Source of the DNA: an uncultured Rhodospirillaceae bacterium
GTDB taxonomy: Bacteria > Pseudomonadota > Alphaproteobacteria > UBA7887
DNA: 64,000 bases
Assembly: GCA_964408735.1 (NCBI GenBank)
Contig: CAYPAX010000002.1
Span: 10,921-74,920 of the forward strand
Direction: 5' to 3'
Positions 6,576 to 55,718 of the stretch are shown here, piece after piece. The notes beneath the pieces are model-generated. The model had not been told where the DNA came from, ran no database searches, and worked only from the letters and a program-made list of their open reading frames with translations. The translations under genes were made by a program, and so were the position numbers. The stretch's first letter is position 1; each line of letters starts with the position of its first letter.

Positions 6576-9500
6576 GTGCGCGCGGTGGCTGAGGACCAGA
6601 GCACGAGACGCTTGGCGGCGATACTGGCGGCGGATGTCGTCGGCTATACCCGCCTCATGCGCGATGACGAGCAGGCCACCATCGCCGCGCTCGAAGCCTG
6701 CCGCGCCATCTTCGCCGACGCCATCGCCACCCATGGCGGGCGTGTGGTGGACATGGCGGGCGATTCCGTGCTCGCTGTCTTCGAGACCGCCGGCGGCGCC
6801 GTCGAGGGCGCCCTTGCCATCCAGCAGCGGCTGGCGGCCCGCGAGGAGCCCGAAGGGCGCCGCATGCGCTACCGCATCGGCGTCAACTCCGGCGATATCG
6901 TCGAGAAGGCCGACGGCACCGTCTATGGCGACGGCGTCAACGTTGCCGCCCGCCTCGAAGGCCTGGCCGAGCCGGGCGCGGTCTGCGTCTCCGGCTCGGT
7001 CTACGATTCGGTCGAAGCCCATTTGGACGCCAGATTCGCCTATCTCGGCAAGCAGACGGTCAAGAACGTCGACAAGCCCGTGCGCGCCTACCGGGTCTTG
7101 GAGCCTGGTGCCGAAGCGCCCAAGGCGCCGCGCAGGCGCTATGCGATTATCGCCGCCGCGGCGGTGGTCCTCATCGCCGCCGGCCTCGGCGTGCGCTGGC
7201 TGACCTACGTGCCGCCATACTCGGACATGGTCACTGTCACCGGCGAATTTACCAACGACCCGGTGCTGGCAGCACCCACGGGCCCGGCCATCGCCGTGCT
7301 GCCGTTCGACGATCTCTCCGAGGACACCGGCCAGGGCTTCTTCGCCGACGGCCTCACCGAGGACATCATCACCGGGCTGTCGCGCTTCAGCAATCTGCGC
7401 GTCATCGCCCGCCACTCGACCTTCCAATACAAGGGCCAGGCAGTCGATGTGCGTGAGGTCGGCGAGGCGCTCGGCGTGCGCTACGTGCTCGAAGGCAGCG
7501 TGCGGCGGGCGGGCGAGTCCCTGCGCGTGACCGCCCAGCTTCTCGATGCCCGCGACGGCACGCACCTGTGGGCGGAGAACTACGCCCGCGATCTGAGCAC
7601 CGCCGACATCTTCGCCATCCAGGACAGCATCATGGAGCGCATCGTCGGCACGCTCGGCAGCAGCGTCGGCGTCATCAGCCGTGCCCTACTGGAGGAGAGC
7701 GCGGCCCGCTACACCGACAATCTTGCCGCCTATGACTGCGTGCTGCGCGCCTATGCCTATTACGACCTGGCGACCGCGGACGAGCACCTGGCGGTGCGCA
7801 CCTGCCTGGAAGAGGCGGTGGCGCAGGACCCCTCCTATGCCGAGGCTTGGGGCTGGCTCGCCGGCATGTATCAGGACGAATACAAGTTCGCCTTCAACCC
7901 ACGCGCGGAAGCGGACGATCCGCTGGCGAGAGCCATCGCGGCGTCGCGGAACGCCATCAACGCCGATGCGACCAGCCAGGTCGGTTACGAGACCCTGGCC
8001 GGCGGGCATTATTTTTCGGGCGATATCGAACAATTCCGCGCCGCCGCCGAGCGCGCTCTGTCGCTCAACCCCAACAACTCCAATACCCTCGCCTGGATGG
8101 GCTTTCTCACGGCCTATTCCGGCGCCTGGAACAGAGGCATCGCCCTGCTCGACAAGGCGGTCAACCTCAATCCCAATCATCCCAGCTGGTATCACGTTGC
8201 CTACGCCCTGCATCACTATCACAAGGGCAATTACGAGGCGGCGCTGTTGGCGGCCAAGCGCTACAACCTGCCGGGTTTCTACTGGCACCACCTGAATCTG
8301 TCGATGATCTACGCGCAGCTCGGCCGGCTCGACGAGGCACGGGCTGCGGTTGCCGAGCTTACCAAGCTCTATCCCGGTTACGCCGACGTCGCCCGTGCCG
8401 ACCTGGAGAAATGGTTCAAGGACGAAGCGCTGGTCACGGCCATGCTGGAGGGCCTGGAGAAGGCCGGGCTGTTCGACGAGCCCGAAGTCACGCGTCCGGC
8501 CATTGCCGTGCTGCCCTTTGCGAACCTTGGCGGCGACCCGGCCCAGGCCTATTTCGCCGACGGCATCACGGAAGAGCTGACCGAGGCGCTGGCGCGCTTC
8601 CAGGGGCTGTCTGTCACGGCGCGCACCCCGACGCTGCAATACAAGGAGACGACAGCGGACGTGCGCGAGATCGGCCAGGCGCTGGGCGTCGGTTATGTGT
8701 TGGAGGGCAGCGTGCGCCGCGACGCCGACACGGTCGGCATAACGGCGCAGCTCATCGACACAGCCGACGGCGCACATCTGTGGAGCGAGACCTACGAGCG
8801 CGACCTCATTGTCGGCGGCATTTTCGCGGTGCAGGAGGATATTGCGGATCGGGTGACGGTGGCGCTTACCGGTCGCCACGGGGTCCTTGTGGAACGAGAC
8901 TTGGCAGAAGCCCGTCAGTTGGCCCCGGAGAGCCTCGAGCACTATGACTGTGTTCTGTTGGCATCGGTCTATTGGGAGCACGCGGAACAGAAAACCTATC
9001 CGGCATTGCTGGATTGTCTCGAGCACGCGGTGGAATCGAATCCAGACTACGTAGACGCATGGATAGCCTTATCGGAGTTCTATGCCAACGACTACGAGCT
9101 TTCGATTGGCGCAAGGCCGGATCCTGCCTCACTAGCACTCGCCGCAGCGGAAAGGGCGGTCGAACTCGCGCCGAGACGTCACGACGCCCATGGGGTGAAA
9201 TCGAACGCGCTTTTCTTTTTGCACCAGCTCGATGCCTTTGAGAAGGCAGGCGATGTCGCGGTTGAGCTTAATCCGAGTGATCCCGAAATCCTGGTCCTGA
9301 CCGGGCTCCATTTGGTCCTGGTGGGCAAATGGGAGAAGGGTATCACCTTGGTGCATCGGGCGATGGAGCTTCAGCCCGATCATCCGACTTGGTGGTATTT
9401 CCCGACGATTTGGGAGCATTACCACAATGGTCGTTACGAGGCCGCGCTTGCTGACGCCCTCAAGATCGATCTCGAGGATTACCTGTGGACCCACACCGCG

Positions 9501-10922
9501 CGCGCGATCGCCTATGCGCGTCTCGGCCGCATGGCCGAAGCGCGGGCGGCGGCGGCGCGCGCAGCCGAGGTCTATCCCGGCTTCTCGATCGAGGCCCAGC
9601 GTGCCGAGCTGCAAAAATATAATTTCGAAGAGTCACTCATCGCCGACACTCTCGGCGCCCTCCGTCTCGCCGGGGTGCCGGAGACGCCGCCGGCGCCGGC
9701 GCGGCCGGTGATTGTCGTGCTGCCGTTCGACAATATGGGCGGCGATGGGAGCCAGGACTTTTTCGCCGACGGCATTACCGAGGATATCACCACGCGGCTG
9801 TCGCGCTTTGCTGACCTTGCCGTGATCGCGCGCAACTCGGCCTTCCAGTACAAGGGCCAGGCCGTGGATGTGGAGGCCGTGGCGGCCGAGCTTGGCGCCG
9901 ACTATGTGGTGGAGGGAAGCGTGCGGCGCTCGCAGGACCGCGTGCGCGTCACCGCCCAGCTCCTCGAAGCCGGCGCCGCCACCCACCTCTGGGCCGAGAC
10001 CTACGACCGCGACCTGACGGCCGGCGACGTCTTCGACATCCAGGACGAGATCACCGACTCCATCGTCGGCGTCATAGCCGGTGTCCACGGTGTGATTTCC
10101 CGCTCCGGTGCAGCCGATGCCCGTCGGCGCCCCGAAAGCCTCGACACCTATGACTGTTTGTTGCTCGCCTATGCTTATGACCGTCAAGTGACCGCCGAGG
10201 CGTTCCACGCCGGAAAACAGTGCCTCGACGCAGTGCTGGCGCGCGAGCCGGATTATGTCGATGCTCTGTCCGCATTTACCTATCTCGCGGCCGACGGCTC
10301 CACCATGGGCTGGGGTGGACTGACGGACGACGAGCGTGAGGCCCTATTGGCCGAGGCCCTTGCGACGGGCCACCGTGCCATCACCTTGGCACCGGATGAC
10401 GCCAAGAGCCAGTGGACTCTCGCTTATGCCAAATTCGTCGCCGGCGACGTGCCCGGCTTCCGGGCTCACGCCGAGCAGGCCATGACGCTCAACCGGAACG
10501 ATGCGGACGTTAAGGGCTATGCCGGATTGTTGCTGGCTTTCGCTGGCGACTACGATCGGGGCCTTGAGCTGCTCGAAGAAGCTTTCGCCCTCAACCCGCA
10601 TCATCCCCAATGGTGGCAATTTGGTGTGGCGACCGCGCATTGGGCCGATGGCCGCTACGAGGAAGCCCTGGCCGCCGTCCGCAAAGTGGATCAACCGGAC
10701 AGTTATTGGACGCACATATGGCGTGTCTTGGCTTTCACCGGCGTCGGCGACATGGACTCTGCTCGTGCGGCGGCCGCCGATCTGGAGCGCGTCTATCCCG
10801 GCTTTACCATCGCTGCCTATCGCGATGAGGTCGCCTATTGGCAGCTGAAGCCGGATCTTGTTGATAAGGCCATCGCCGCCCTACGCAAGGCCGGCCTGCC
10901 AGAGGGCGGCGACAGCGACTAG
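6576..10922 (+). CDS. Class III adenylate/guanylate cyclase with one TM segment and three tandem TolB-N-like plus TPR-like sensor modules (1448 aa)
   Basis: GTG start. The N-terminal CHD cyclase domain reads LAAILAADVVGYTRLM...GDSVLAVF...YGDGVNVAARLE. A hydrophobic segment follows (YAIIAAAAVVLIAAGLGV). Three ~404-aa modules then each begin P[AV]I[AV]VLPF.[DN]...FADG[IL]TE[DE][IL]T..L[SA]RF and end in TPR-like helices. Confidence 0.85.
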   Translation: MRAVAEDQSTRRLAAILAADVVGYTRLMRDDEQATIAALEACRAIFADAIATHGGRVVDMAGDSVLAVFETAGGAVEGALAIQQRLAAREEPEGRRMRYRIGVNSGDIVEKADGTVYGDGVNVAARLEGLAEPGAVCVSGSVYDSVEAHLDARFAYLGKQTVKNVDKPVRAYRVLEPGAEAPKAPRRRYAIIAAAAVVLIAAGLGVRWLTYVPPYSDMVTVTGEFTNDPVLAAPTGPAIAVLPFDDLSEDTGQGFFADGLTEDIITGLSRFSNLRVIARHSTFQYKGQAVDVREVGEALGVRYVLEGSVRRAGESLRVTAQLLDARDGTHLWAENYARDLSTADIFAIQDSIMERIVGTLGSSVGVISRALLEESAARYTDNLAAYDCVLRAYAYYDLATADEHLAVRTCLEEAVAQDPSYAEAWGWLAGMYQDEYKFAFNPRAEADDPLARAIAASRNAINADATSQVGYETLAGGHYFSGDIEQFRAAAERALSLNPNNSNTLAWMGFLTAYSGAWNRGIALLDKAVNLNPNHPSWYHVAYALHHYHKGNYEAALLAAKRYNLPGFYWHHLNLSMIYAQLGRLDEARAAVAELTKLYPGYADVARADLEKWFKDEALVTAMLEGLEKAGLFDEPEVTRPAIAVLPFANLGGDPAQAYFADGITEELTEALARFQGLSVTARTPTLQYKETTADVREIGQALGVGYVLEGSVRRDADTVGITAQLIDTADGAHLWSETYERDLIVGGIFAVQEDIADRVTVALTGRHGVLVERDLAEARQLAPESLEHYDCVLLASVYWEHAEQKTYPALLDCLEHAVESNPDYVDAWIALSEFYANDYELSIGARPDPASLALAAAERAVELAPRRHDAHGVKSNALFFLHQLDAFEKAGDVAVELNPSDPEILVLTGLHLVLVGKWEKGITLVHRAMELQPDHPTWWYFPTIWEHYHNGRYEAALADALKIDLEDYLWTHTARAIAYARLGRMAEARAAAARAAEVYPGFSIEAQRAELQKYNFEESLIADTLGALRLAGVPETPPAPARPVIVVLPFDNMGGDGSQDFFADGITEDITTRLSRFADLAVIARNSAFQYKGQAVDVEAVAAELGADYVVEGSVRRSQDRVRVTAQLLEAGAATHLWAETYDRDLTAGDVFDIQDEITDSIVGVIAGVHGVISRSGAADARRRPESLDTYDCLLLAYAYDRQVTAEAFHAGKQCLDAVLAREPDYVDALSAFTYLAADGSTMGWGGLTDDEREALLAEALATGHRAITLAPDDAKSQWTLAYAKFVAGDVPGFRAHAEQAMTLNRNDADVKGYAGLLLAFAGDYDRGLELLEEAFALNPHHPQWWQFGVATAHWADGRYEEALAAVRKVDQPDSYWTHIWRVLAFTGVGDMDSARAAAADLERVYPGFTIAAYRDEVAYWQLKPDLVDKAIAALRKAGLPEGGDSD
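7284..10919 (+). repeat. Intragenic tandem triplication: three ~1.21-kb modules (7284-8495, 8496-9704, 9705-10919) encoding residues 237-640, 641-1043 and 1044-1448
   Basis: Module boundaries were placed by hand at the recurring PAIAVLPF/PVIVVLPF motif. The modules are of equal length. Similarity is recognisable at DNA level and strong at protein level. Confidence 0.7.
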
Positions 10923-10930
10923 AGCGCCGC

Positions 10931-19854: not shown

Positions 19855-20685
19855 ATGCCCGAGCTTCCCGAAGTCGAGACCGTCCGCCGTGGCCTGGCAC
19901 CCAAGCTCGAAGGCCATCGCATAGCGCGCATCACGGTGCGGCGCGGCGATTTGCGCTTTCCCTTGCCGGCGGATTTCGCAACCCGCCTCGAAGGGCGCTG
20001 TGTCGAGACCATCGGCAGGCGCGGCAAATATCTGCTTTTCGCGCTCGACGACGGCCAGGTCGTGATCGGCCATCTCGGCATGTCCGGGCGCCTCTTCGCT
20101 CGGCCCGAGGCCGGCGCCGCACCCGAGAAGCACGACCACATTCTCTTCGTCACCGACGACGGCGTTGAGATCGTCTTCAACGATGTGCGCCGATTCGGCC
20201 TCTTCGATCTCACGCAGGCCGCGGCGCTAGACGATCACCCCCTGTTGCGCGATATGGGCCCCGACCCCCTTGGCAACGACTTCTCCGGCCCTGTGCTTTC
20301 CGCGGCCCTCGCGGGCCGGCGTTCGCCCATCAAGGCCTTGCTGCTCGATCAGCACCTGGTCGCCGGCATCGGCAACATCTATGCCTGCGAGAGCCTGTAC
20401 CGCGCCGGCATTTCGCCGAAACGCCTCGGCGCCAGCGTTGCCGGGGCCAGGGCCGAGCGTCTGGTGCCCGCCATCAAGGCCGTATTGGGCGATGCCATCG
20501 CGGCCGGCGGCTCGTCTCTGCGCGACTATGTCCAGGCCTCGGGCGAACTCGGCTACTTTCAGCATGCCTTTTCCGTCTATGGCCGCGAGGGCGAGCCTTG
20601 CGCCAGCGGCGCGCCCGGCCATTGTGTCAAGCGCATCGTGCAGGCGGGGCGCTCCACTTTCCTTTGTCCCAAATGCCAGCGCTGA
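19855..20685 (+). CDS. mutM: Formamidopyrimidine-DNA glycosylase
   Basis: N-terminus MPELPEVET and a C-terminal zinc finger (CxxC...CPKCQ). This is the real start inside a spurious 976-aa track ORF. Confidence 0.9.
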
Positions 20686-20698
20686 GGTAGGTTGGGGC

Positions 20699-21061
20699 AT
20701 GGCACGCCTGCGCGAAATTCTGGCCGCCCTTTCGTTGCTGTTGGCCTTGCCGGCAGCGGCAGACGAGGCGGTGTTCGTCGCCGGCTTCGATGACCTGCCG
20801 CTGATGGCGGTGCTGAGCGAGCTCGGCGATGCGGGGGTGATCTTCGATACGCCGCAGGGGCGAATCGTCGAGCGCTATGCCAGCGGCGCCACCGATGCGG
20901 CGGCGGTGTCCCGCTTCTACGGCGACACCCTGCCGGCGCTCGGCTGGCAGGCTTCCGGGCCGCTGCAATACGAGCGCGAGGGCGAACGCCTGACCATCAC
21001 CATCTATCCCGCCGATTCGGCGCAACGCCTGACGGTGCGATTTTCCCTCGCGCCAAGCTGA
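20699..21061 (+). CDS. Hypothetical secreted protein (121 aa)
   Basis: Signal peptide MARLREILAALSLLLALPAAA. The ATG is at 20699 within a longer track ORF. No recognised domain. Confidence 0.4.
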   Translation: MARLREILAALSLLLALPAAADEAVFVAGFDDLPLMAVLSELGDAGVIFDTPQGRIVERYASGATDAAAVSRFYGDTLPALGWQASGPLQYEREGERLTITIYPADSAQRLTVRFSLAPS

Positions 21062-21076
21062 GAACAAGGACCTAGC

Positions 21077-21850
21077 ATGGCTTATGAGAACATCGCCGTA
21101 GAGAGGCGCGGCAAGGTCGGCGTCGTCACGCTCGACCGCCCGAATGCGCTCAACGCGCTGAACAGCGCCCTGGTAGCCGAGCTGGGCCAGGCACTGGCCG
21201 AGTTCGATGCGGACGACGGCATCGGCGCCATCGTGCTGACCGGCTCGGAGAAGGCTTTCGCCGCCGGTGCCGACATCAAGGAGATGCAGTCGAAATCCTA
21301 TATGGATGCCTATTTCGGCGATTTCATCGGATCCTGGGAGTGCCTGGCCGCGTGCCGCAAGCCGATCGTTGCGGCGGTAGCCGGCTTCGCGCTTGGCGGC
21401 GGCTGCGAGTTCGCCATGATGTGCGACATCGTCATCGCCGCCGACAATGCCCGCTTCGGTCAGCCCGAGATCAAGCTCGGCACCTTTCCCGGTGCCAGCG
21501 GCACCCAGCGCCTGCCGCGCGCTGTCGGCAAGGCCAAGGCCATGGACCTGATTCTGACAGGCCGCATGATGGATGTGGAGGAGGCCGAGCGCGCCGGGCT
21601 GGTCAGCCGCATCGTGCCCCTTGGCGAGCTTATGAATACGGCCATGGACGTGGCCGAGACCATCGCCGCGATGTCGCTGCCCGTGGCGATGATGGCCAAG
21701 GAGGCGGTCAACCGGGCCTATGAGACGCCACTCAGCGAAGGTGTCATGTTCGAGCGCCGGCTGTTCTATTCCACCTTCGCGCTCGAGGATCAGAGCGAGG
21801 GCATGGCCGCCTTCGCCGAGAAGCGCAAGCCCGATTTCAAGAACCGCTGA
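21077..21850 (+). CDS. Enoyl-CoA hydratase (crotonase family)
   Basis: 257 aa. Crotonase motifs ([17 protein letters not shown]; [20 protein letters not shown]). Confidence 0.85.
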
Positions 21851-21882
21851 TTCGGGCGCAGGCGATTCGCTCGGGGTGGCTG

Positions 21883-21911
21883 TTGACGCTCCCGATTCGC
21901 CCGGTTATAAC
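21883..21911 (+). promoter_or_regulatory. Candidate sigma70 promoter for rpsT (TTGACG - 17 nt - TATAAC)
   Basis: Seen in the sequence. It is followed by a perfect 7-bp stem hairpin, GCGGACG-gag-CGTCCGC (21925-21941), in the 5' leader. Confidence 0.3.
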
Positions 21912-21967
21912 CGCGCCCTTTCCTGCTGCGGACGGAGCGTCCGCGGGCAATTCCAGTCGGGTTGAGC

Positions 21968-22231
21968 ATGGCGCATCACAAATCGGCCAAGAAACGCATT
22001 CGCCGCAACGAGCGGCAGCGGCTCGTCAATCGAGCCCGCATCGGCAGCATCCGCACGTCCGTCAGGACCGTCGAGGTGGCGATAGCCGGTGGCGACAAGG
22101 CGGCGGCGCAGGCTGCCTTCGTCCAGGCGCAGCCGCAATTGATGCGTGGCGTCGTCAAGGGCGTGGTGCCGCGCAACGCCATGCGGCGCAAGCTGTCGCG
22201 CCTCAGCCGCCGCATCAAGGCGATGGCGTAG
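21968..22231 (+). CDS. rpsT: 30S ribosomal protein S20
   Basis: Translation reads [22 protein letters not shown]... across 87 aa. The track ORF starts two codons earlier, at 21962. Confidence 0.85.
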
Positions 22232-22261
22232 GTCCTTCGAAGCACAGGTTATGTCGGCCAC

Positions 22262-22288
22262 GGCCGCGCTCGGGCGCGGCCGTTCTTG
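22262..22288 (+). terminator. Candidate rho-independent terminator after rpsT
   Basis: GGCCGCGC-tcgg-GCGCGGCC hairpin followed by GTTCTTG. Confidence 0.35.
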
Positions 22289-22687
22289 CATCCGCAGCCC
22301 GAGGCGATTCGCGTTGCCGATGCGCACTCGTCCAAGAAAAAATGCATGTCAAGGTTCCGATTCTGTTGCAGTCGGCGGCCTGCATCGGTAGTCTTTGATG
22401 GTGGTGCTGAGGTGGCTGCGGCCAAGTTGGGCAATAAGTATTCGCATTTGGTAACCTAGAATAACGTTACAAAATAGGCGGATACGGTAAGTCTTGCCGA
22501 AATCTAGCTGGAATGATTGTGCGACGTTACTGTACGTCGTTGGGTGTGGTTGTTGTCGATAACGGCAGAATTGGCGGCTCAGGGGGGTCATGACCATTTC
22601 ACCAGCAAGATTTGACTGCGGGTTCTCCACGATGTCCCAGTGTCGGCCCTCGCCGATGCTTGATTCGATACAGCGCTAGCGGGCGTC
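22289..22687. promoter_or_regulatory. dnaA upstream control region: local AT-rich stretch (~22430-22520) and a DnaA-box-like TTATCGACA (22554-22562, reverse strand)
   Basis: Seen in the sequence: one mismatch to TTATCCACA. The rpsT-dnaA arrangement is typical of Alphaproteobacteria. Whether this is oriC is unknown. Confidence 0.3.
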
Positions 22688-24079
22688 TTGGCGGTCGTGG
22701 CAGAGACACAAAACAGGCTGGAAGCCGACGAGAGCTGGCGGCGCGTGCGCGACCGTTTGCGCGGCGAGCTGGGCAGCACCACCTTCGAGCGTTGGATGGA
22801 ATCGGTCGAGCTGGGAAGCGTCACGGGCGGGCGGGTTCAGCTTTGCGTGCCGACGCGTTTTCTGCGTGATTGGGTGGCGCCGCGCTATGGCGACCGGCTG
22901 CGCGCCTTGTGGCAGGACGAGAGCAAGAACGTGGCGGCCGTCGATATCGTGGTGCGCCCGGGCCTGCCGACTCCGGTCGACCCACCGCGCCCGAGCGGGC
23001 TTGCGACCGAGGCCGAGACGGCCGGCGAAGATCCCTTCGGCGATATCGATTCGATCGGGGCGGCGCTCGATTCGCGCTACTGCTTCGACAATTTCGTGGT
23101 CGGCAAGCCCAACGAGTTCGCCCACGCCGCGGCAAAGCGGGTCGGCGAATCGGACGACGTGCCTTTCAATCCGTTGTTCATCTATGGCGGCGTCGGCCTC
23201 GGCAAGACCCATCTGATGCACGCCATCGGCCTGCAGGTGCGAGAGCGCCGCCCCGACAAGCGAGTGATCTACCTCTCGGCCGAGAAGTTCATGTACCAGT
23301 TCATCCGCGCCCTGCGGTTCAAGAACATCATGGGCTTCAAGGAGCTGTTCCGCTCGGTCGACGTGCTGCTGATCGACGACGTGCAGTTCATCGGCGGCAA
23401 GGAATCGACCCAGGAAGAGTTCTTCCACACCTTCAATGCGCTGGTCGACCAGAACAAGCAGGTGATCGTGTCCGGCGACCGCTCGCCGGCGGATCTCGAA
23501 TATATGGACGAGCGCATGCGCTCGCGCCTCAGCTGGGGCCTGGTGGCGGAGGTGCATCAAACGTCCTACGAGTTGCGCCTCGGCATCCTGCAGGGCAAGG
23601 CCGACCAGCTCGGCGCCGGCCAGGTGCCGCCCAAGGTGCTGGAGTTCCTCGCCCACAAGATCAGCTCGAATGTGCGCGAGCTGGAGGGCGCGCTGATTCG
23701 CGTCGTCGCCCATTCCACCCTGGTGGGGCGCCCCATCACCCTGGAGAGCACCCAGGAGGTCCTGCACGACCTGCTGCGTGCCAACGACCGCAGGGTGACC
23801 ATCGAGGACATCCAGAAGCGGGTCGCCGAGTACTACAACATCAAGGTCTCGGAGATGAGCTCGGCGCGGCGGGCGCAGATGGTGGCCCGGCCGCGCCAGG
23901 TCGCGATGTATCTGGCCAAGCAGCTGACCCAGCGCTCGCTGCCGGAGATCGGCCGCAAGTTCGGCAATCGCGACCACACAACGGTGATGCACGCGGTGCG
24001 CAAGGTCGATCAGCTGCGCCAAAGCGATGCCGGCTTCGCCGAAGACGTGGAGCTGCTCAGGCGCATGCTCGAGGCCTGA
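22688..24079 (+). CDS. dnaA: Chromosomal replication initiator protein DnaA
   Basis: AAA+ Walker A (GGVGLGKTHL), Walker B (LLIDDVQF), sensor motifs and the C-terminal DNA-binding domain. The start is TTG at 22688 or GTG at 22697 and is uncertain. Confidence 0.95.
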   Translation: MAVVAETQNRLEADESWRRVRDRLRGELGSTTFERWMESVELGSVTGGRVQLCVPTRFLRDWVAPRYGDRLRALWQDESKNVAAVDIVVRPGLPTPVDPPRPSGLATEAETAGEDPFGDIDSIGAALDSRYCFDNFVVGKPNEFAHAAAKRVGESDDVPFNPLFIYGGVGLGKTHLMHAIGLQVRERRPDKRVIYLSAEKFMYQFIRALRFKNIMGFKELFRSVDVLLIDDVQFIGGKESTQEEFFHTFNALVDQNKQVIVSGDRSPADLEYMDERMRSRLSWGLVAEVHQTSYELRLGILQGKADQLGAGQVPPKVLEFLAHKISSNVRELEGALIRVVAHSTLVGRPITLESTQEVLHDLLRANDRRVTIEDIQKRVAEYYNIKVSEMSSARRAQMVARPRQVAMYLAKQLTQRSLPEIGRKFGNRDHTTVMHAVRKVDQLRQSDAGFAEDVELLRRMLEA

Positions 24080-24225
24080 GCGGCCGCTGCCCGAAAGGGC
24101 GAAAAAACTATAGAAAACACACGAGTCTGGTATAGTTCCGGACCCGGGGGCGACGGCGCCGCCGGCGGCTCGACGGGCGGCTGGCGCCTGTCGGCTGGCA
24201 GCTTTCAACGAGGGTTTCCGGCGAC

Positions 24226-25337
24226 ATGAAACTGACCATCGAGCGCTCGCATCTGCTCAAGTCGCTGCAGCACGTGCAAAGCGTGGTCGAGCGCCGCAAT
24301 ACCATTCCGATTTTGTCCAATCTGCTGATTTCGTCAAACGGCGGCAAGCTCAGCCTGACGGCCACCGACATGGATATCGAGGTGATCGACGCGACACCGT
24401 CGGAGGTCGGCCAGGAGGGCACGGCGACGGCGCCGGCGCATATGCTCTACGACATCGTGCGCAAGCTGCCCGAGGGCGCCCAGGTGGAGCTGGCCAGCGA
24501 AGAAGGCAGCGAGCGCCTGGCGCTCCGCAGCGGCGGCTCGGCGTTCTCTCTGCATTGCCTGCCGCCGGTGGACTTTCCCGCCTTCTCGGCCGGCGATCTC
24601 GATCACAGCTTCGCCATTCCGGCAGCCGATCTCAGACGGCTGATCGACAAGACCCGATTCGCGATCTCGACCGAGGAGACGCGCTACTACCTCAACGGCA
24701 TTCACCTGCACGCGGTCGAAGAGGGCGAGCGGGCCCTGCGTGCGGTGGCCACCGACGGCCATCGTTTGGCGCGGGTCGAGGTGGACCTGCCGGCCGGCGC
24801 CGAGGGCATGCCGGGCATCATCGTGCCGCGCAAGGCGGTCACCGAGCTGCGCAAGCTGCTCGACGATGCCGAGGACGAGGTCGCGGTGGCGCTGTCGGAC
24901 GTCAAGGTTCGCTTCACCATCGACGGTGCGGTGCTGTCGTCCAAGCTGATCGACGGCACCTTCCCCGACTATCAGCGCGTGATCCCGGAAGGCAACGACA
25001 AGGTGATGAGCGTGCACGGCCCGAGCTTTGCCGAAGCCGTGGACCGGGTCTCGACCATCGCCAGCGACAAGTCGCGGGCCATCAAGCTGGCGATCGAGAC
25101 GGGTAAGCTGGTGCTTTCCGCCAACAGTCCCGACCAGGCCAGCGCCACTGAGGAGCTGGTGGTGGACTATGATGGCGAATCGCTGTCGATCGGCTTCAAC
25201 TCCCGTTACGTGCTTGAAATGACGCAACAGGTCGAGGGCGACACCTTGCGCTTTTCCATGGCCGATTCCGCCTCGCCGACGGTGGTTGGCGACAGCGAGG
25301 ATGCGCGCGCGCTCTATGTGTTGATGCCGATGCGCGT

Positions 25338-25341
<4 letters not shown>
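24226..25341 (+). CDS. dnaN: DNA polymerase III beta sliding clamp
   Basis: 371 aa with the typical N-terminus MKLTIERSHLLKSLQHVQSVVERRNTIPILSNLL. Confidence 0.95.
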
Positions 25342-28969
<3,628 letters not shown>

Positions 28970-43054: not shown

Positions 43055-43351
43055 ATGTATGCCGTCTTGATCCTGTTCGGCGAGCCGGTGGACCCCGCCG
43101 CCTTCGCGCGTCATGTCGAGGAAACCCATCGGCCCTTGCTCGACGGGCTCCCCGGTGCCGAGGCCGTCGGGCTGAAATGGGTCGCCGGGAGGCTTGCCGG
43201 CGAGCTGGCCCTCCACCTCGTGATCGAAATCGGCTTTGCCACCGAAGCGGCGTTGCAGGATAGCCTGAACTCGCCGGCCGGACAGGCCATGGCGCGGGAC
43301 TACCCCAATTTCGCTTCCGGCGGCGTGACCATACTGGCCTCAGTCGGGTAG
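43055..43351 (+). CDS. EthD-like small protein (98 aa)
   Basis: EthD/Dabb-like size and hydrophobic pattern. This is a weak call. Confidence 0.4.
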   Translation: MYAVLILFGEPVDPAAFARHVEETHRPLLDGLPGAEAVGLKWVAGRLAGELALHLVIEIGFATEAALQDSLNSPAGQAMARDYPNFASGGVTILASVG

Positions 43352-45067
43352 GCCGGCGGCGCTGAACCCTTCGTCAAACCGTGCCGCCATGGCAGTATCG
43401 TGGATATGCATCGGCCGCATGGTGCTGCGGCTCAGCGCCGGCTCGCCGGCCAGCAGCTCCTGCACGCATTTCTGCGCTACCTCCTGCTGCCCGGCATGCC
43501 AAAGGATCGGCACAGAGATGAGGTGGTTTCGCAACAGATCCGGGGCCTGGCGCACCAGCTTGCTGACCACCTGGGCAGCCCGCTCCGGCTCACCGACGAT
43601 GAAATGGGCCAGCGCCAGCTCGCGCTGATGGCGGAAGCGGTGGGGGTCCTCCGGCGCCGCCTGGATGCCGTTTTGCAGCAGCTGCAAGCCCTCGTCCTGC
43701 TCACCCAGATGGAACTTGGCGATGCCTGTCATGGCCGTCGCCTGGGAGAAGCTCGAATTAAGCTCGAGCGAGGTTTCCGCATGCACCAGGGCGGCATCGA
43801 AATCGCCGCGCAAATCCTGATGGATCATGGCCGCGATGAGATGGGCGAAGAAGCTCGACGGATCGACGGACAATGCCGCCTTGATGCCGGAAGACAGCTC
43901 CTCCCTCACATCCGCCGGCATGTCGAGCACGGAGAACTCGAACATGCGATAGCGGCAAAAGATCATCATCGCCATGGCCATGGCATTATCGGGCTTGCGC
44001 GTCAGCGCCGCCTTGAGGGTTTCCGCCGCCTCGTCGTTATGGCTGTACGAACTGACGAAATAGCCAGCCGCCTTCGACAGCAATTGCGGCACCGAGAGCG
44101 CATCGTTGACCGTGTTGCGAAGCTTCTCGAAGGCCTTGGCCTTGATGCGGATGCGCACGGCCGCTGCGACGCTCATGGAGATCTCGTCCTCGAGATCGAA
44201 GACATCGTCGAGGTTGCGGTCGTAGCGGTCGGACCAGACCTGACTGCCGCCCACCCCCTCGGCAAGCGTGAACGACAGCCTGAGCCTGTCGCCGGCCGCG
44301 CGAACGCTGCCTTCGAGGCGGAAATCCGCGCCCTCGGCCACCTCGCCAGCATGCTCGCCAATTACTGCAATCGCCGTCTGCTTGGTCAGGCCGCCGACGA
44401 TGTCCTGTTGCAGGCCCTCGGCCAGGGAGGCGATCTCGTCGCCGCCGCTGATGACCTTGACGGGCGCCACGGCGACGGTGGGCAGCTCCTCGCCATCCTT
44501 CCTGGTCGGCTCACGATTGGTCCGCTTGCCCTCCCCCTCGACACCGAACTGATAGACCGCCACGGGATCTGCGATATTCTTCAGCTCCTGCTCGCCCATG
44601 AAGGCGAACGGTCCGCCGACCTTGGCGCGCACACTGTCGAATACCGTGCCAGAGACGTTGATGCCGCCGGGGCTTGCCATGGCTTGCAGGCGCGCCGCCA
44701 CATTGACCCCGTCGCCGTAGATCGAGCCGTCTTCCTTCTCCAGGATATCGCCGAGATTGAGGCCGACCCGGAACAGCATCTTGCGGTCGTCGGGCAAGGG
44801 CTCGTTGCGCTTGGCAAGCTCCCCTTGCGCCTCGGTGGCCGACGTCACGGCGCTGATGGCGCTTTCGAAAATCGCCAGCACCGAATCGCCCGCCATATCG
44901 ACGATGCGCCCGTTATGGGCCTCGATACACTTGCGGAAGATGCCGCGAAACTCGTCGAGGGTGGCGACCGTGGCGCGGTCGTCCTCGCGCATCAGGCGCG
45001 AATAGCCGACAGCGTCGGCCGCCAATATGGCAGCCAGACGTTCCTTCGGCTCCTTGGTCTCGGTCAT
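43340..45067 (-). CDS. Class III adenylate/guanylate cyclase, soluble, with a degenerate TolB-N-like module and TPR-like C-terminus (575 aa)
   Basis: The CHD cyclase domain reads LAAILAADAVGYSRLM...GDSVLAIF...YGDGVNVAARLQ. No TM segment is present. The internal stretch VAVAPVKVISGGDEI...LEGSVRAAGDRLRLSFTL is a degenerate copy of the module seen in the other two cyclases. Confidence 0.8.
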   Translation of the reverse strand: MTETKEPKERLAAILAADAVGYSRLMREDDRATVATLDEFRGIFRKCIEAHNGRIVDMAGDSVLAIFESAISAVTSATEAQGELAKRNEPLPDDRKMLFRVGLNLGDILEKEDGSIYGDGVNVAARLQAMASPGGINVSGTVFDSVRAKVGGPFAFMGEQELKNIADPVAVYQFGVEGEGKRTNREPTRKDGEELPTVAVAPVKVISGGDEIASLAEGLQQDIVGGLTKQTAIAVIGEHAGEVAEGADFRLEGSVRAAGDRLRLSFTLAEGVGGSQVWSDRYDRNLDDVFDLEDEISMSVAAAVRIRIKAKAFEKLRNTVNDALSVPQLLSKAAGYFVSSYSHNDEAAETLKAALTRKPDNAMAMAMMIFCRYRMFEFSVLDMPADVREELSSGIKAALSVDPSSFFAHLIAAMIHQDLRGDFDAALVHAETSLELNSSFSQATAMTGIAKFHLGEQDEGLQLLQNGIQAAPEDPHRFRHQRELALAHFIVGEPERAAQVVSKLVRQAPDLLRNHLISVPILWHAGQQEVAQKCVQELLAGEPALSRSTMRPMHIHDTAMAARFDEGFSAAGLPD

Positions 45068-52535: not shown

Positions 52536-55500
52536 GTGAGCGAGGACGGCGGACAAGAAGGCACCACCGAGCGCGTCGCGGCGATCCTGGCGGCGGATGC
52601 CGTGGGCTATTCGCGCCTCATGGCCGACGACGAGAAGGCGACGATCGCGGCGCTGGATCGCGCGCGGGCGGTGTTCACAGAACACATAGAGGCCAACCGT
52701 GGCCGGGTGGTGGACACGGCGGGCGACAGTGTGCTGGCGGTGTTCCAGACCACAGGCGGCGCTGTGCGGGCTTCGGTGGCAATCCAGGAAGGCCTGGCGG
52801 CGCTGGGCGAGGGTGTGCCCGAGCCGCGGCAAATGCTGTTCCGCATCGGCATCCACCTCGGCGATATTCATGAGAAGGCGGATGGCACCATCTACGGCGA
52901 TGGCGTCAATGTGGCGGCGCGGCTGGAGGCGCTGAGCCAGCCAGGGGGGATAACGGTTTCCGACTCAGTGCATGGCAGCATCCGCGACCGGCTTGACGTA
53001 AGCTTCGAGTTCCTGGGCGAGCACGAAGGCAAGAACCTCCGAGCGCCTGTGAAGGCGTATCGTGTGTTGCCAGAGGGCGTGGCTCTTGACACGTCAAAGA
53101 GTAAGCTAGGAATTCCGCGTAGTGGTGTCATCGCCGCGGCAGTGGCAGCCATCCTTATCGTGGTGGGAGCGGTTTGGTGGCAGACGCGGGCGCCCGAACT
53201 GCCGCCGATGGTGAGTGCCGCCGGCACGCCCACCGACGACCCCATTCTGGCCGCGCCCTCGGGTCCGGCGATTGCAGTGCTACCTTTTACTGATTTGTCC
53301 GAGGCAGCTGGACAAGCGTTCTTTGCCGACGGCTTGGCCGAGGACATCATTACCGGGCTGTCGCGTTTCAATCATTTGCGTGTCATCGCCCGCAACTCGA
53401 CCTTCCAGTACAAAGGCCAGGCGGTCGATGTGCGTGAGGTCGGCGAGGCGCTGGGTGTGCGCTACGTGCTCGAAGGCAGCGTCCGGCGAGCGGGTGACTC
53501 GTTACGTGTCTCGGCCCAGCTTCTCGATGCCCGCGACGGCACCCACCTGTGGGCGGAAACTTATGCCCGCGATCTCACTACCGCCGACATCTTCGGTGTC
53601 CAGGACAGCATCATGGAGCGTATCGTCGGGACCCTTGGTGATGAGCATGGTGTCATCAGTCGTGCCGGATTGGCAGAGACCGCAGCTCGCCACACCGACA
53701 ATCTCAGCGCCTACGAATGCGTGCTGCGCGCCTACGGCTATTACGACGTGATCACCCCGGCTGAGCATCTTGCGGTGCGCGCCTGCCTGGAGGAAGCGGT
53801 GGCTCTTGACCTGACCTACGCCGAGGCCTGGGGTTGGCTATCCCACATGTATCAGGACGAATACAAGTTCGGTTTCAATCCACGCCCCGACGTGGGCGAT
53901 CCGCTGGCGTCGGCCATCGCGGCTTCGCAGAATGCGATCAAGGCCGATCCGACCAGCCAGATTGGCTACGAATCCCTGGCCACGGGGCACTATTTCGCCG
54001 GCGACCTGGAGCAATTTCGTATCGCTGCCGAACGGGCGCTGTCGCTCAATCCGAACAACTCGCAAACGCTGGCCTATCTCGGCCAAATGATCGCATTTGC
54101 CGGTGATTGGGACAGAGGGATTGCCTTGATGGACAAGGCGGTGAGCCTCAATCCCAATCACCCCACCTGGTATCACGCCGCATACCTCATGCGACACTAT
54201 CGCGACGCCGACTACGCGGCGGCCTTGCTTTCGGCCAAGCGCTACAACTTGCCCATATTCTTCGCGCACCATTTGTTTCATGCGATCATCTACGCACAGC
54301 TGGGCCGGACCGAAGAGGCGCGGGCATCTATCGTCGCGCTTGAAGCGCTGTACCCGGGATATGCCGACGTAGCGCGCAGCAATCTGGAAAAATGGTGGAA
54401 AGACGAGGCGGTGGTCACTGCCATGCTCGACGGCCTGGAAAAAGCCGGCCTCTTCGATGAGCCCGAACCGCCATCCCGGCCCGTCATTGCCGTGCTGCCC
54501 TTCGACAATCTCTCTGGCGATCCCGAGCAGGACTATTTCGCCGACGGCATCACCGAGGACATCATCACGCGGCTGGCGCAGTTTCCGGACATTCTCGTGC
54601 TCGGGCGCAACACGACCTTCCAGTTCAAGGGCGAGGCGGTGGACGTGAAGGAGATCGGCGCCAGGTTGGAAGCCGACTACATCGTCGAAGGCAGCATCCG
54701 CCGCGCCGGCGAGACCGTGCGGGTCAACGCCCAGCTGCTCGATACCGAGAGCGGTGGCCATATCTGGGCCGAGACCTACGACCGCGCCCTTGACCCAGCC
54801 AACCTCTTCGCCATGCAGGACGAGATCACGGAAGCCGTCGCCAGCCGTATCGGCGACCGACATGGGGCGATTGGCCGTGCCGAGTTTCAGCGCTCCTCCC
54901 GACAAGCGCCAAAGAGTCTTTCGTCATACGAGTGCATTCTGAGATTTGTCGAGTTTCAACGGCACTTCAACGAGGAGACCCATGGTGTGGCGCGTGCCTG
55001 CCTGGAGGAAGTCGTCGAGGCAGAGCCCGATTACGGCGAGGCCTGGGCGCTGCTTGGTAATGCGTACCTCAATGAGATCAATTTTGGATTCAATGCCTCG
55101 GCGGAGTCTTCTTTGGCGCGGGCGATAGAGTTTATGGAGCGGGGTATTGCTATCGACCCGGGAAGCGGTCTGGCCCACGTTCACTTGGCCTGGGCGCTTC
55201 TCACCAACGACAACCCGGAGCGTGCCCTGCGCGAAGCCGAGGAAGCCCTGCGGCTCGATCCCAACAACGTCGAAGTCATCGCGACGGCTGGCATAGTTTT
55301 CGTGAACACGGGGGAGTATCAACGCACCGAGGAGATCATGGCCAAGGTCACGCTGCTGAACCCGAACTATCCCGCCTGGATGAACTGGAACATGGCAAAA
55401 GTTCACCTCGCGCGCGGCGACTATGCGGACGTCGTGGCGCGCCTTGAGATGACACAGATGGCGTGGTGGTATTGGACCAAAGCCTTCCTCGCCGCCGCCC

Positions 55501-55718
55501 ATTGCGCCAACGGCGATATCGAGCGTGGGCAGGAGGAGCTCGATGCCGCCCTCCAAGCTAACCCCGACCTCGCCGAGGCGTATTGGCCGGAGGTCTATTA
55601 CTTCAACAAGAGACCCGAGGTGCAGCCAATGATCGATGCCCTCTCCGCTGGCCTTGAGGTCTGTGGCTGGGACGTGCCGCCTGACCCGGGGCGACAGGCC
55701 GCGGCTGCGCCTAAATAA
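52536..55718 (+). CDS. Class III adenylate/guanylate cyclase with one TM segment and two tandem TolB-N-like plus TPR-like modules (1060 aa)
   Basis: GTG start and a CHD domain. A TM segment follows (VIAAAVAAILIVVGAVWW). The modules start at residue 244 (PAIAVLPFTDLSE...) and residue 649 (PVIAVLPFDNLSG...). Confidence 0.85.
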   Translation: MSEDGGQEGTTERVAAILAADAVGYSRLMADDEKATIAALDRARAVFTEHIEANRGRVVDTAGDSVLAVFQTTGGAVRASVAIQEGLAALGEGVPEPRQMLFRIGIHLGDIHEKADGTIYGDGVNVAARLEALSQPGGITVSDSVHGSIRDRLDVSFEFLGEHEGKNLRAPVKAYRVLPEGVALDTSKSKLGIPRSGVIAAAVAAILIVVGAVWWQTRAPELPPMVSAAGTPTDDPILAAPSGPAIAVLPFTDLSEAAGQAFFADGLAEDIITGLSRFNHLRVIARNSTFQYKGQAVDVREVGEALGVRYVLEGSVRRAGDSLRVSAQLLDARDGTHLWAETYARDLTTADIFGVQDSIMERIVGTLGDEHGVISRAGLAETAARHTDNLSAYECVLRAYGYYDVITPAEHLAVRACLEEAVALDLTYAEAWGWLSHMYQDEYKFGFNPRPDVGDPLASAIAASQNAIKADPTSQIGYESLATGHYFAGDLEQFRIAAERALSLNPNNSQTLAYLGQMIAFAGDWDRGIALMDKAVSLNPNHPTWYHAAYLMRHYRDADYAAALLSAKRYNLPIFFAHHLFHAIIYAQLGRTEEARASIVALEALYPGYADVARSNLEKWWKDEAVVTAMLDGLEKAGLFDEPEPPSRPVIAVLPFDNLSGDPEQDYFADGITEDIITRLAQFPDILVLGRNTTFQFKGEAVDVKEIGARLEADYIVEGSIRRAGETVRVNAQLLDTESGGHIWAETYDRALDPANLFAMQDEITEAVASRIGDRHGAIGRAEFQRSSRQAPKSLSSYECILRFVEFQRHFNEETHGVARACLEEVVEAEPDYGEAWALLGNAYLNEINFGFNASAESSLARAIEFMERGIAIDPGSGLAHVHLAWALLTNDNPERALREAEEALRLDPNNVEVIATAGIVFVNTGEYQRTEEIMAKVTLLNPNYPAWMNWNMAKVHLARGDYADVVARLEMTQMAWWYWTKAFLAAAHCANGDIERGQEELDAALQANPDLAEAYWPEVYYFNKRPEVQPMIDALSAGLEVCGWDVPPDPGRQAAAAPK
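53265..54479 (+). repeat. Dispersed direct repeat: module 1 of the 52536 cyclase is ~85-90% identical at nucleotide level to 7284-8495 (module 1 of the 6576 cyclase)
   Basis: Direct comparison by eye of 7381-7680 with 53381-53680. Protein identity is ~80% across roughly 400 aa, whereas the catalytic domains are only ~55-60% identical. Confidence 0.6.

Follow-up and report, generated by a model that had tools for sequence, protein, structure and literature searches.

Two genes in the 64,000-nt stretch of DNA analysed here (the window) encode membrane-anchored class III cyclases and share a first sensor module, termed M1, that is more alike between them than their cyclase heads are. This likeness of M1 in the two genes, g1 and g2, is probably the outcome of module exchange among the paralogs of a receptor-cyclase family; the M1 copies would be more alike than the heads because modules move between paralogs. 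We infer that this movement likely proceeds by non-reciprocal homologous recombination, as gene conversion or segment replacement. Comparison of the available sequences shows mosaicism across the whole family. Module exchange is a known evolutionary mode, and the repeat shared by g1 and g2 is best explained as a case of it in a hyper-mosaic group of receptors that has been little studied.

The list of open reading frames with their translations, together with Pfam matches, places three class III cyclase genes within the window (Table 1). All three products score above the cut-off of 21.9 bits for the class III cyclase family PF00211 (Guanylate_cyc), with 44.8 bits for g1, 39.6 for g2 and 35.3 for g3, and the g1 product additionally matches TPR families and TolB_N. 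A common layout is found in g1 and g2, with an N-terminal cyclase, one hydrophobic helix (residues ~188–212 in g1 and ~190–217 in g2) and tandem modules of ~404 aa, and the cyclase of g3 is 54–55% identical in amino acids to those of g1 and g2. The g1 reading frame opens at a GTG at 6576, and its likely start is the GTG at 6585: the product from 6576 gave no match on exact look-up, and the 1445-aa product from 6585 has exact matches on 12 contigs, which come from independent ENA metagenome assemblies. The exact product of g2 occurs on 10 contigs of such assemblies. Since the exact products recur on independent contigs, the structures of g1 and g2 are not accidents of assembly.

Table 1. Positions in the window of the cyclase genes, their domains and modules, the non-orthologous tract and the dnaA region.
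Feature	Position	Strand	Description	Basis
g1	6585–10922	+	Membrane-anchored class III cyclase, three sensor modules	ORF list, Pfam, contig matches
g1 cyclase catalytic domain	6603–7100	+		Pfam match aa 15–164; AlphaFold2; Foldseek
g1 transmembrane helix	7137–7211	+	Single; RRR on N-terminal side	Hydropathy; model helix
M1 copy A (g1 module 1)	7227–8492	+	Module proper 7281–8492	Likeness to copy B from 7227
g1 module 2	8493–9701	+	Different module type, 40% aa identity to M1	Module identity matrix
g1 module 3	9702–10919	+	Third module type; nearest are L006 module 4 (78%) and P0004 module 2 (60%)	
dnaA	22688–24079	+		Pfam
dnaN	24226–25341	+		Pfam
recF	25338–26522	+		Pfam
gyrB	26525–28969	+		Pfam
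g3	43340–45067	-	Third cyclase paralog, without transmembrane helix, one degenerate module	
g2	52536–55718	+	Membrane-anchored class III cyclase, two sensor modules	ORF, Pfam
g2 tract, non-orthologous to L085/P0075	53076–54430	+		Codon-wise identity profile, nearest-relative switch
g2 transmembrane helix	53103–53186	+	Single	Hydropathy scan
M1 copy B (g2 module 1)	53208–54476	+	Module proper 53262–54476; nearest is P0006 module 1 (87% aa)	
g2 module 2	54477–55715	+	92% aa identity to module 2 of positional ortholog P0075	

An AlphaFold2 model of residues 1–640 of g1 (pLDDT 90) comprises the cyclase domain (residues 10–175, pLDDT about 90–96), a transmembrane helix (190–208), an alpha/beta subdomain (238–360) and an all-helical subdomain (366–629). 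The best Foldseek match of the g1 cyclase is 3mr7 (TM 0.86, 46% identity), and many other CHDs match as well. D63, N122 and R126 are the same in all of 109 family members, and D20 in nearly all. We take these residues to be the catalytic positions, namely the metal-binding Asp pair and the transition-state Asn and Arg, and their conservation would fit an active enzyme. The M1 module, of ~404 aa (1.25 kb), has two parts, a TolB-N-like alpha/beta subdomain and, C-terminal to it, a TPR-like helical subdomain. A Foldseek search with the 640-aa model returned cyclase matches only, and a module-only model was used for the fold search; the best match of the predicted M1 fold, which contains both subdomains, was the periplasmic sensor domain of CadC. 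At the sequence level the CadC family gave no Pfam match at E ≤1e-3, with only TPR families, TolB_N and FlgO being reported; as identity to the CadC structure 3ly7 is also only 15%, the module is here called CadC-like as a working term and is not assigned to CadC. Hydropathy provides clues to topology: only one 19-aa window in the whole g1 protein exceeds a Kyte-Doolittle value of 1.6, basic residues lie N-terminal of this lone hydrophobic helix, and no later transmembrane segment occurs in g1. Because M1 directly follows the single transmembrane helix of both cyclases, it most likely serves as the membrane-proximal extracytoplasmic sensor of each receptor and would act from the periplasm to control the cytoplasmic cyclase.

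The two M1 copies are homologous, lie in direct orientation in genes 46 kb apart and flank the dnaA, dnaN and gyrB genes, in agreement with the initial annotation of the window. That annotation had described them as near-identical, with 85–90% DNA identity, which is too high: over 1212 nt the copies are 77.3% identical in DNA and 77% in protein. A repeat search recovers 300-nt blocks at 79–80%, identity in 150-nt windows ranges from 69% to 89%, and values of 84–89% are confined to ~7338–7600, so that about 225–300 nt reach 85–89%; the longest exact runs are 29, 29, 26, 26 and 22 nt. The copies are nevertheless more alike than the catalytic domains of the same genes, as had been proposed, since the g1 and g2 cyclases are 61–62% identical in protein and 66% in DNA; the remaining pairs of modules in the window share 33–44% protein identity. 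The proposed mosaic signal is thus present. Third-position identity is 0.61 for the M1 pair, 0.47–0.49 for the cyclase pair and 0.35–0.48 for unrelated module pairs. By the NG86 method, dS between g1 and g2 is 0.81 in M1 and 1.09–1.15 in the cyclase, and dN is 0.156 and 0.307–0.318, respectively. The synonymous contrast is modest (pS 0.50±0.03 in M1 and 0.57–0.59±0.04 in the cyclase), and most of the difference between M1 and the cyclase is non-synonymous.

The g2 locus can be compared with a positional ortholog, L085 (protein P0075), which shares its neighbours with g2 and is 88.5% identical to the window in flanking DNA. The cyclases of the two proteins are 83–85% identical and the second modules 92% identical, whereas the first modules share only ~40%. 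The left edge of the non-orthologous tract (Table 1) falls at 53076–53196, in the transmembrane/linker region, and its right edge at ~54415–54440, being sharp to within ~25 nt. DNA identity between g2 and L085 is 80–95% outside the tract and 30–65% inside it, where third-position identity falls to 0.1–0.5 and synonymous sites are saturated. These profiles show a replacement of the first module between g2 and its positional ortholog. The region of the left edge is poorly conserved, and a homology-driven crossover at this place is not obvious. P0093 was considered as a third genome for this locus and rejected, as it sits at another locus. P0075 and P0093 share a cyclase and first module at 93% identity, at non-syntenic loci in different samples.

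Changes of another kind are seen at the g1 locus, where the number of modules in positional orthologs is one in L002, three in the window and four in L006, the nearest GTDB representative, an uncultured Rhodospirillaceae MAG. Collinearity of L002 with the window, at 88%, reaches as far as window position 8476 and resumes at 10927. In its g1 ortholog homology runs through the GLFD that closes M1 and breaks off at the next codon, with TAA then ending the frame; in place of window modules 2 and 3 stand three genes without relation to them (a 261-aa ORF, dcd and purA), and no remnants of these modules were found in the replacing 3.2-kb segment. Module 2 of g1, absent from L002, is present twice in L006. 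Within M1 itself, L002 is 91–96% identical to its orthologs at both ends and 65–82% identical in the middle 700 nt, and this middle patch is nearest to a paralog from the same sample with the same coverage. Triplet Fisher tests of the patch gave p values from ~1e-10 to 5e-6 depending on the paralog. None of 1000 permutations gave a PHI statistic as low as that observed for seven M1 copies, and only 9 did so after the removal of L002. Modules have thus been gained and lost at the g1 locus, and one ortholog of g1 carries an internal conversion-like patch. A scan of GTDB genomes with M1 gave L006 as its single close relative; the 78 further loci, in Acidobacteriota and other groups, were left out as distant modules (28–46%).

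The pattern extends well beyond the two loci. At least 7996 proteins in the database were recovered by a protein search at E ≤1e-30, and the usual architecture in the family is a cyclase with two modules, ~1045 aa in length. The comparison genomes are all metagenome assemblies in which contigs are assigned to genomes by sample and coverage only. Ten clusters beyond g1 and g2 carry the M1 type at 75–92% identity. M1 is joined to at least five cyclase types, and four of these types have close relatives with another first module, in which the cyclase is 83–94% and module 2 is 86–94% identical. The second module can also differ: at one locus in two genomes (L004 with P0006, L005 with P0004) the cyclases are 83% and the M1 copies 79% identical and the second modules 41%, that of P0004 being of the g1 module 3 type and that of P0006 distantly of the g2 module 2 type. 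Among 174 pairs of proteins with cyclases at least 80% identical, both modules reach at least 75% in 3 and both fall below 60% in 97. At locus L092, from a related genome, two paralogs located 6 kb apart on one contig share 512 identical nt, comprising 15 nt upstream and the first 497 nt of coding sequence, after which identity falls to saturation. Unless two highly similar sequences were collapsed during assembly, this tract shows that the cyclase head was converted very recently.

Recombination between module types may be seeded in their conserved parts, probably the first 360 nt of the module and the tail with its GLxKAGL motif. Across module types the first 360 nt are 60–73% identical and contain exact matches as long as 33 nt. 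Conservation is likewise seen in the module tail, where the tract in g2 has its right edge and where L002 is truncated. The left edge of the g2 tract is left unexplained by this model of head and tail anchors. The donors may instead have been other genomes, with lateral uptake of DNA followed by homologous replacement, an explanation that we regard as unlikely. In its favour, no donor was found in the same genome, the M1 copies form a star-like set at 75–87% spread over several metagenomic genomes, and the 93% likeness of P0075 and P0093 joins non-syntenic loci from different samples; the identical tract between neighbouring paralogs at L092 and the affinity of the L002 patch to a same-sample, same-coverage paralog speak against it. 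Import and intragenomic copying are not mutually exclusive, and the present data do not distinguish conversion within a genome from import out of related ones.

A further explanation is duplication of whole genes without exchange, with module 1 merely held under stronger purifying selection than the cyclase and module 2. Between g1 and g2, dN/dS is indeed 0.28 in the cyclase and only 0.19 in M1, falling to 0.09 in the N-terminal subdomain of M1, and the dS values of the two regions are not far apart. In positional orthologs, however, M1 is no slower to evolve than the cyclase head: in the two clean ortholog pairs on which the calibration is based, dN of cyclase and M1 is 0.044 vs 0.038 for the window g1 and L006, and 0.108 vs 0.140 for L004 and L005. 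Among M1-bearing paralogs the corresponding values are 0.25–0.38 and 0.075–0.17, the heads being 2–4 times more diverged. As dN of cyclase and M1 is similar in orthologs, stronger constraint on M1 does not account for the contrast. Selection without exchange would also have to accommodate the positional ortholog of g2, so close in its second module and so distant in its first, and the nearest relatives of the g2 cyclase (83–87%), which carry other first modules; we consider it very unlikely. Module exchange among paralogs is the reading that we retain, the genes displaying divergence that is discordant beyond constraint, defined breakpoints and a positive recombination test, as mosaic paralogs do. 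The comparison with orthologs thus bears out the initial proposal of a mosaic formed by module exchange rather than by duplication of whole genes, although the exchange had been called recent, and with dS at ~0.8 the event behind the M1 pair in the window appears to be old.

Direct gene conversion between g1 and g2, recent or still under way in this genome, had also been suggested, and it is highly improbable. The two copies do share one genome and a direct orientation, and their 5' 300 nt are 84–89% identical; yet this 5' region is equally conserved across all M1 copies and not in g1 and g2 alone, and a dS of 0.81 with exact runs of at most 29 nt is not what direct conversion would leave. The M1 of g1 is 92% identical to that of its L006 ortholog and 77% identical to that of g2, so neither concerted evolution of the pair nor ongoing homogenisation is seen in this comparison. 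The M1 of g2, in turn, is nearest to that of P0006 (87% aa, dN 0.075, dS 0.80; 77% and dN 0.156 to g1), and no g1-specific tract was detected in it (Fisher p = 0.29). By these affinities g1 was probably not the donor of the g2 module, and a paralog resembling P0006 is a more likely source. No donor nearer than 87% aa was found for this module, and we thus infer both the direction and the date of the transfer. That the mosaics are chimeric metagenome assemblies of similar paralogs is extremely unlikely: all the sequences do come from short-read metagenome assemblies, in which repeated modules are hard to assemble, but the exact products recur on contigs of separate assemblies (12 for g1, 10 for g2 and four for P0075), synteny extends on both sides of every swapped segment, and module types differing by 50–60% in DNA are too far apart for an assembler to confuse.

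The position of the two copies on either side of the dnaA–dnaN–recF–gyrB block (22688–28969, plus strand) had been considered a hazard, and the persistence of such long identity notable. The cumulative GC skew has a shallow minimum at ~20–22 kb, just upstream of dnaA; matches to the DnaA box in the window are not above chance, so only this weak skew places the origin. RecA-dependent recombination depends strongly on sequence identity. At their level of identity and with such short exact runs, the M1 copies are not recombinogenic long direct repeats of the rrn or IS kind; because they are 77% identical and no exact run exceeds 29 nt, they are poor substrates for homologous recombination and pose no special hazard to the dnaA region. 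A deletion of dnaA, dnaN and gyrB would be lethal and hence never observed. The persistence of the repeats around this region is therefore unremarkable, given that they are poor substrates and that a lethal deletion would go unseen.

Taken across the family, the input of a receptor cyclase is apparently rewired by swapping sensor modules of ~1.2 kb among paralogs, with the catalytic head being kept; the reverse swap, in which the head changes, also occurs, and the number of modules differs between orthologs. The family thereby offers natural chimeras with which to ask which module senses what, and it calls for caution, as the cyclase domain alone is an unsafe basis for transferring function between presumed orthologs. 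A broader and tentative idea, which we regard as possible rather than probable, is a combinatorial cassette system of uncultured Rhodospirillaceae-like Alphaproteobacteria: their receptor cyclases, numbering dozens, would continually re-pair a few heads with many CadC-like modules, one to four per gene, by recombination at module heads and tails. If true, it would represent a fast-evolving repertoire of receptors for environmental or host signals, with a logic akin to antigen or PKS module shuffling, in second-messenger signalling. In the literature searched, no paper specific to this cyclase architecture or to the shuffling of its modules was found, nor any functional study of the cyclase/TolB-N/TPR family, and Sinorhizobium papers give CyaF cyclases only as having function unknown.

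Several known systems share individual features of these receptors. The class III domains of 3mr7 (Silicibacter pomeroyi) and Rv1900c (1ybt/1ybu) are alike to the modelled g1 head, with TM scores of 0.82–0.89 normalised to the target; these solved structures are isolated catalytic domains, none of them with TolB-N/TPR modules. Escherichia coli CadC (PDB 3ly7), distant from M1 in sequence as noted above, carries a ToxR-like DNA-binding domain where the M1 genes carry a cyclase, and M1-like modules stand one to four in tandem, unlike in CadC. In their mode of evolution the receptors resemble the modules of assembly-line polyketide synthases (Nivina et al. 2021, PMC8256042): both are encoded by long genes of homologous modules of ~1 kb or more, in both paralogous modules group against the orthology of the remaining gene, and non-reciprocal transfer between stretches of homology, the likely route in the cyclase family, diversifies loci that are closely related. 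PKS modules are catalytic, whereas those of the cyclase family are predicted extracytoplasmic sensor domains, and, unlike in PKS, exchange in the cyclase family takes place not only inside a gene but also between unlinked genes separated by tens of kb. Histidine kinases (Alm et al. 2006, PMC1630713) likewise form a large paralogous family of sensors in which the output domain is kept and the sensory parts are recombined, and their lineage-specific expansion and domain shuffling have been read as a source of new input specificities (PMC1630713). The present family differs from them in having a class III cyclase as output, in that the shuffled units are homologous variants of one fold swapped in register, and in that positional orthologs directly display the replacements together with their breakpoints.

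The number of sensor modules at the locus of g1, the three-module class III cyclase gene of the window, varies among related genomes, with one, three or four modules found in the orthologs when the regions listed in the table below were compared. In the related locus L002, a 261-aa ORF, dcd and purA stand where the window has the second and third g1 modules, with the breakpoint exactly at the module boundary. The longest g1 ORF opens at GTG 6576 of the window; GTG 6585, three codons downstream, is the start in the orthologs and in the recorded gene call.

Positions of compared regions, paralogs and sites
Feature	Sequence	Position	Strand	Length
g1 module-count comparison	window	8477-10926		
g1 module-count comparison	L002	11893-15073		
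g1 module-count comparison	L006	2516-6150		
g3, third cyclase paralog	window	43340-45067	-	575 aa
DnaA-box-like site, one mismatch	window	22554-22562		
P0009/P0044 matching segments	L092	10001-10497 and 16138-16634		

The protein encoded by g3 is without a transmembrane helix and has one degenerate module, with 22-29% identity to other modules; a syntenic equivalent of 571 aa is carried by L085, the locus of P0075, which is the positional ortholog of the two-module gene g2. P0093, a relative on a contig in JGI 3300072015, is 93% identical to P0075 across the cyclase and module 1, and both its locus and its module 2 differ from those of P0075. P0093 has two more cyclase genes within 10 kb; such genes therefore cluster in the genome.

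A further pair of cyclase paralogs, P0009 and P0044, was observed 6 kb apart in L092 (ERZ24794644 NODE_1205), from a related genome. The two are perfectly identical over 512 nt, comprising 15 nt upstream and the first 497 nt of the coding sequence, and beyond this tract they diverge to saturation. The tract points either to the cyclase head having been converted very recently or to an assembler collapse.

Just upstream of dnaA, the cumulative GC skew reaches its minimum (window ~20000-22690), a position consistent with a nearby origin. The same region holds a single DnaA-box-like site, and DnaA-box counts are at chance level.

The module is also found outside this setting. P0113 carries the same TolB-N/TPR module in a fusion with a SARP-type transcription activator, and loci L007-L084 have modules at 28-46% identity, spread over Acidobacteriota, Gemmatimonadota, Verrucomicrobiota and further phyla. 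This suggests that the module works with several types of signalling output. Two cysteines ~24 residues apart are conserved in the family consensus of both module positions, as exemplified in the M1-type first module of g1 by g1 residues ~395 (YDC) and ~419 (RTC), and the pair is nearly invariant in module 2 across the family. Judged from sequence, this pair would fit a putative periplasmic disulfide, a likeness to CadC, for which a periplasmic disulfide is known.
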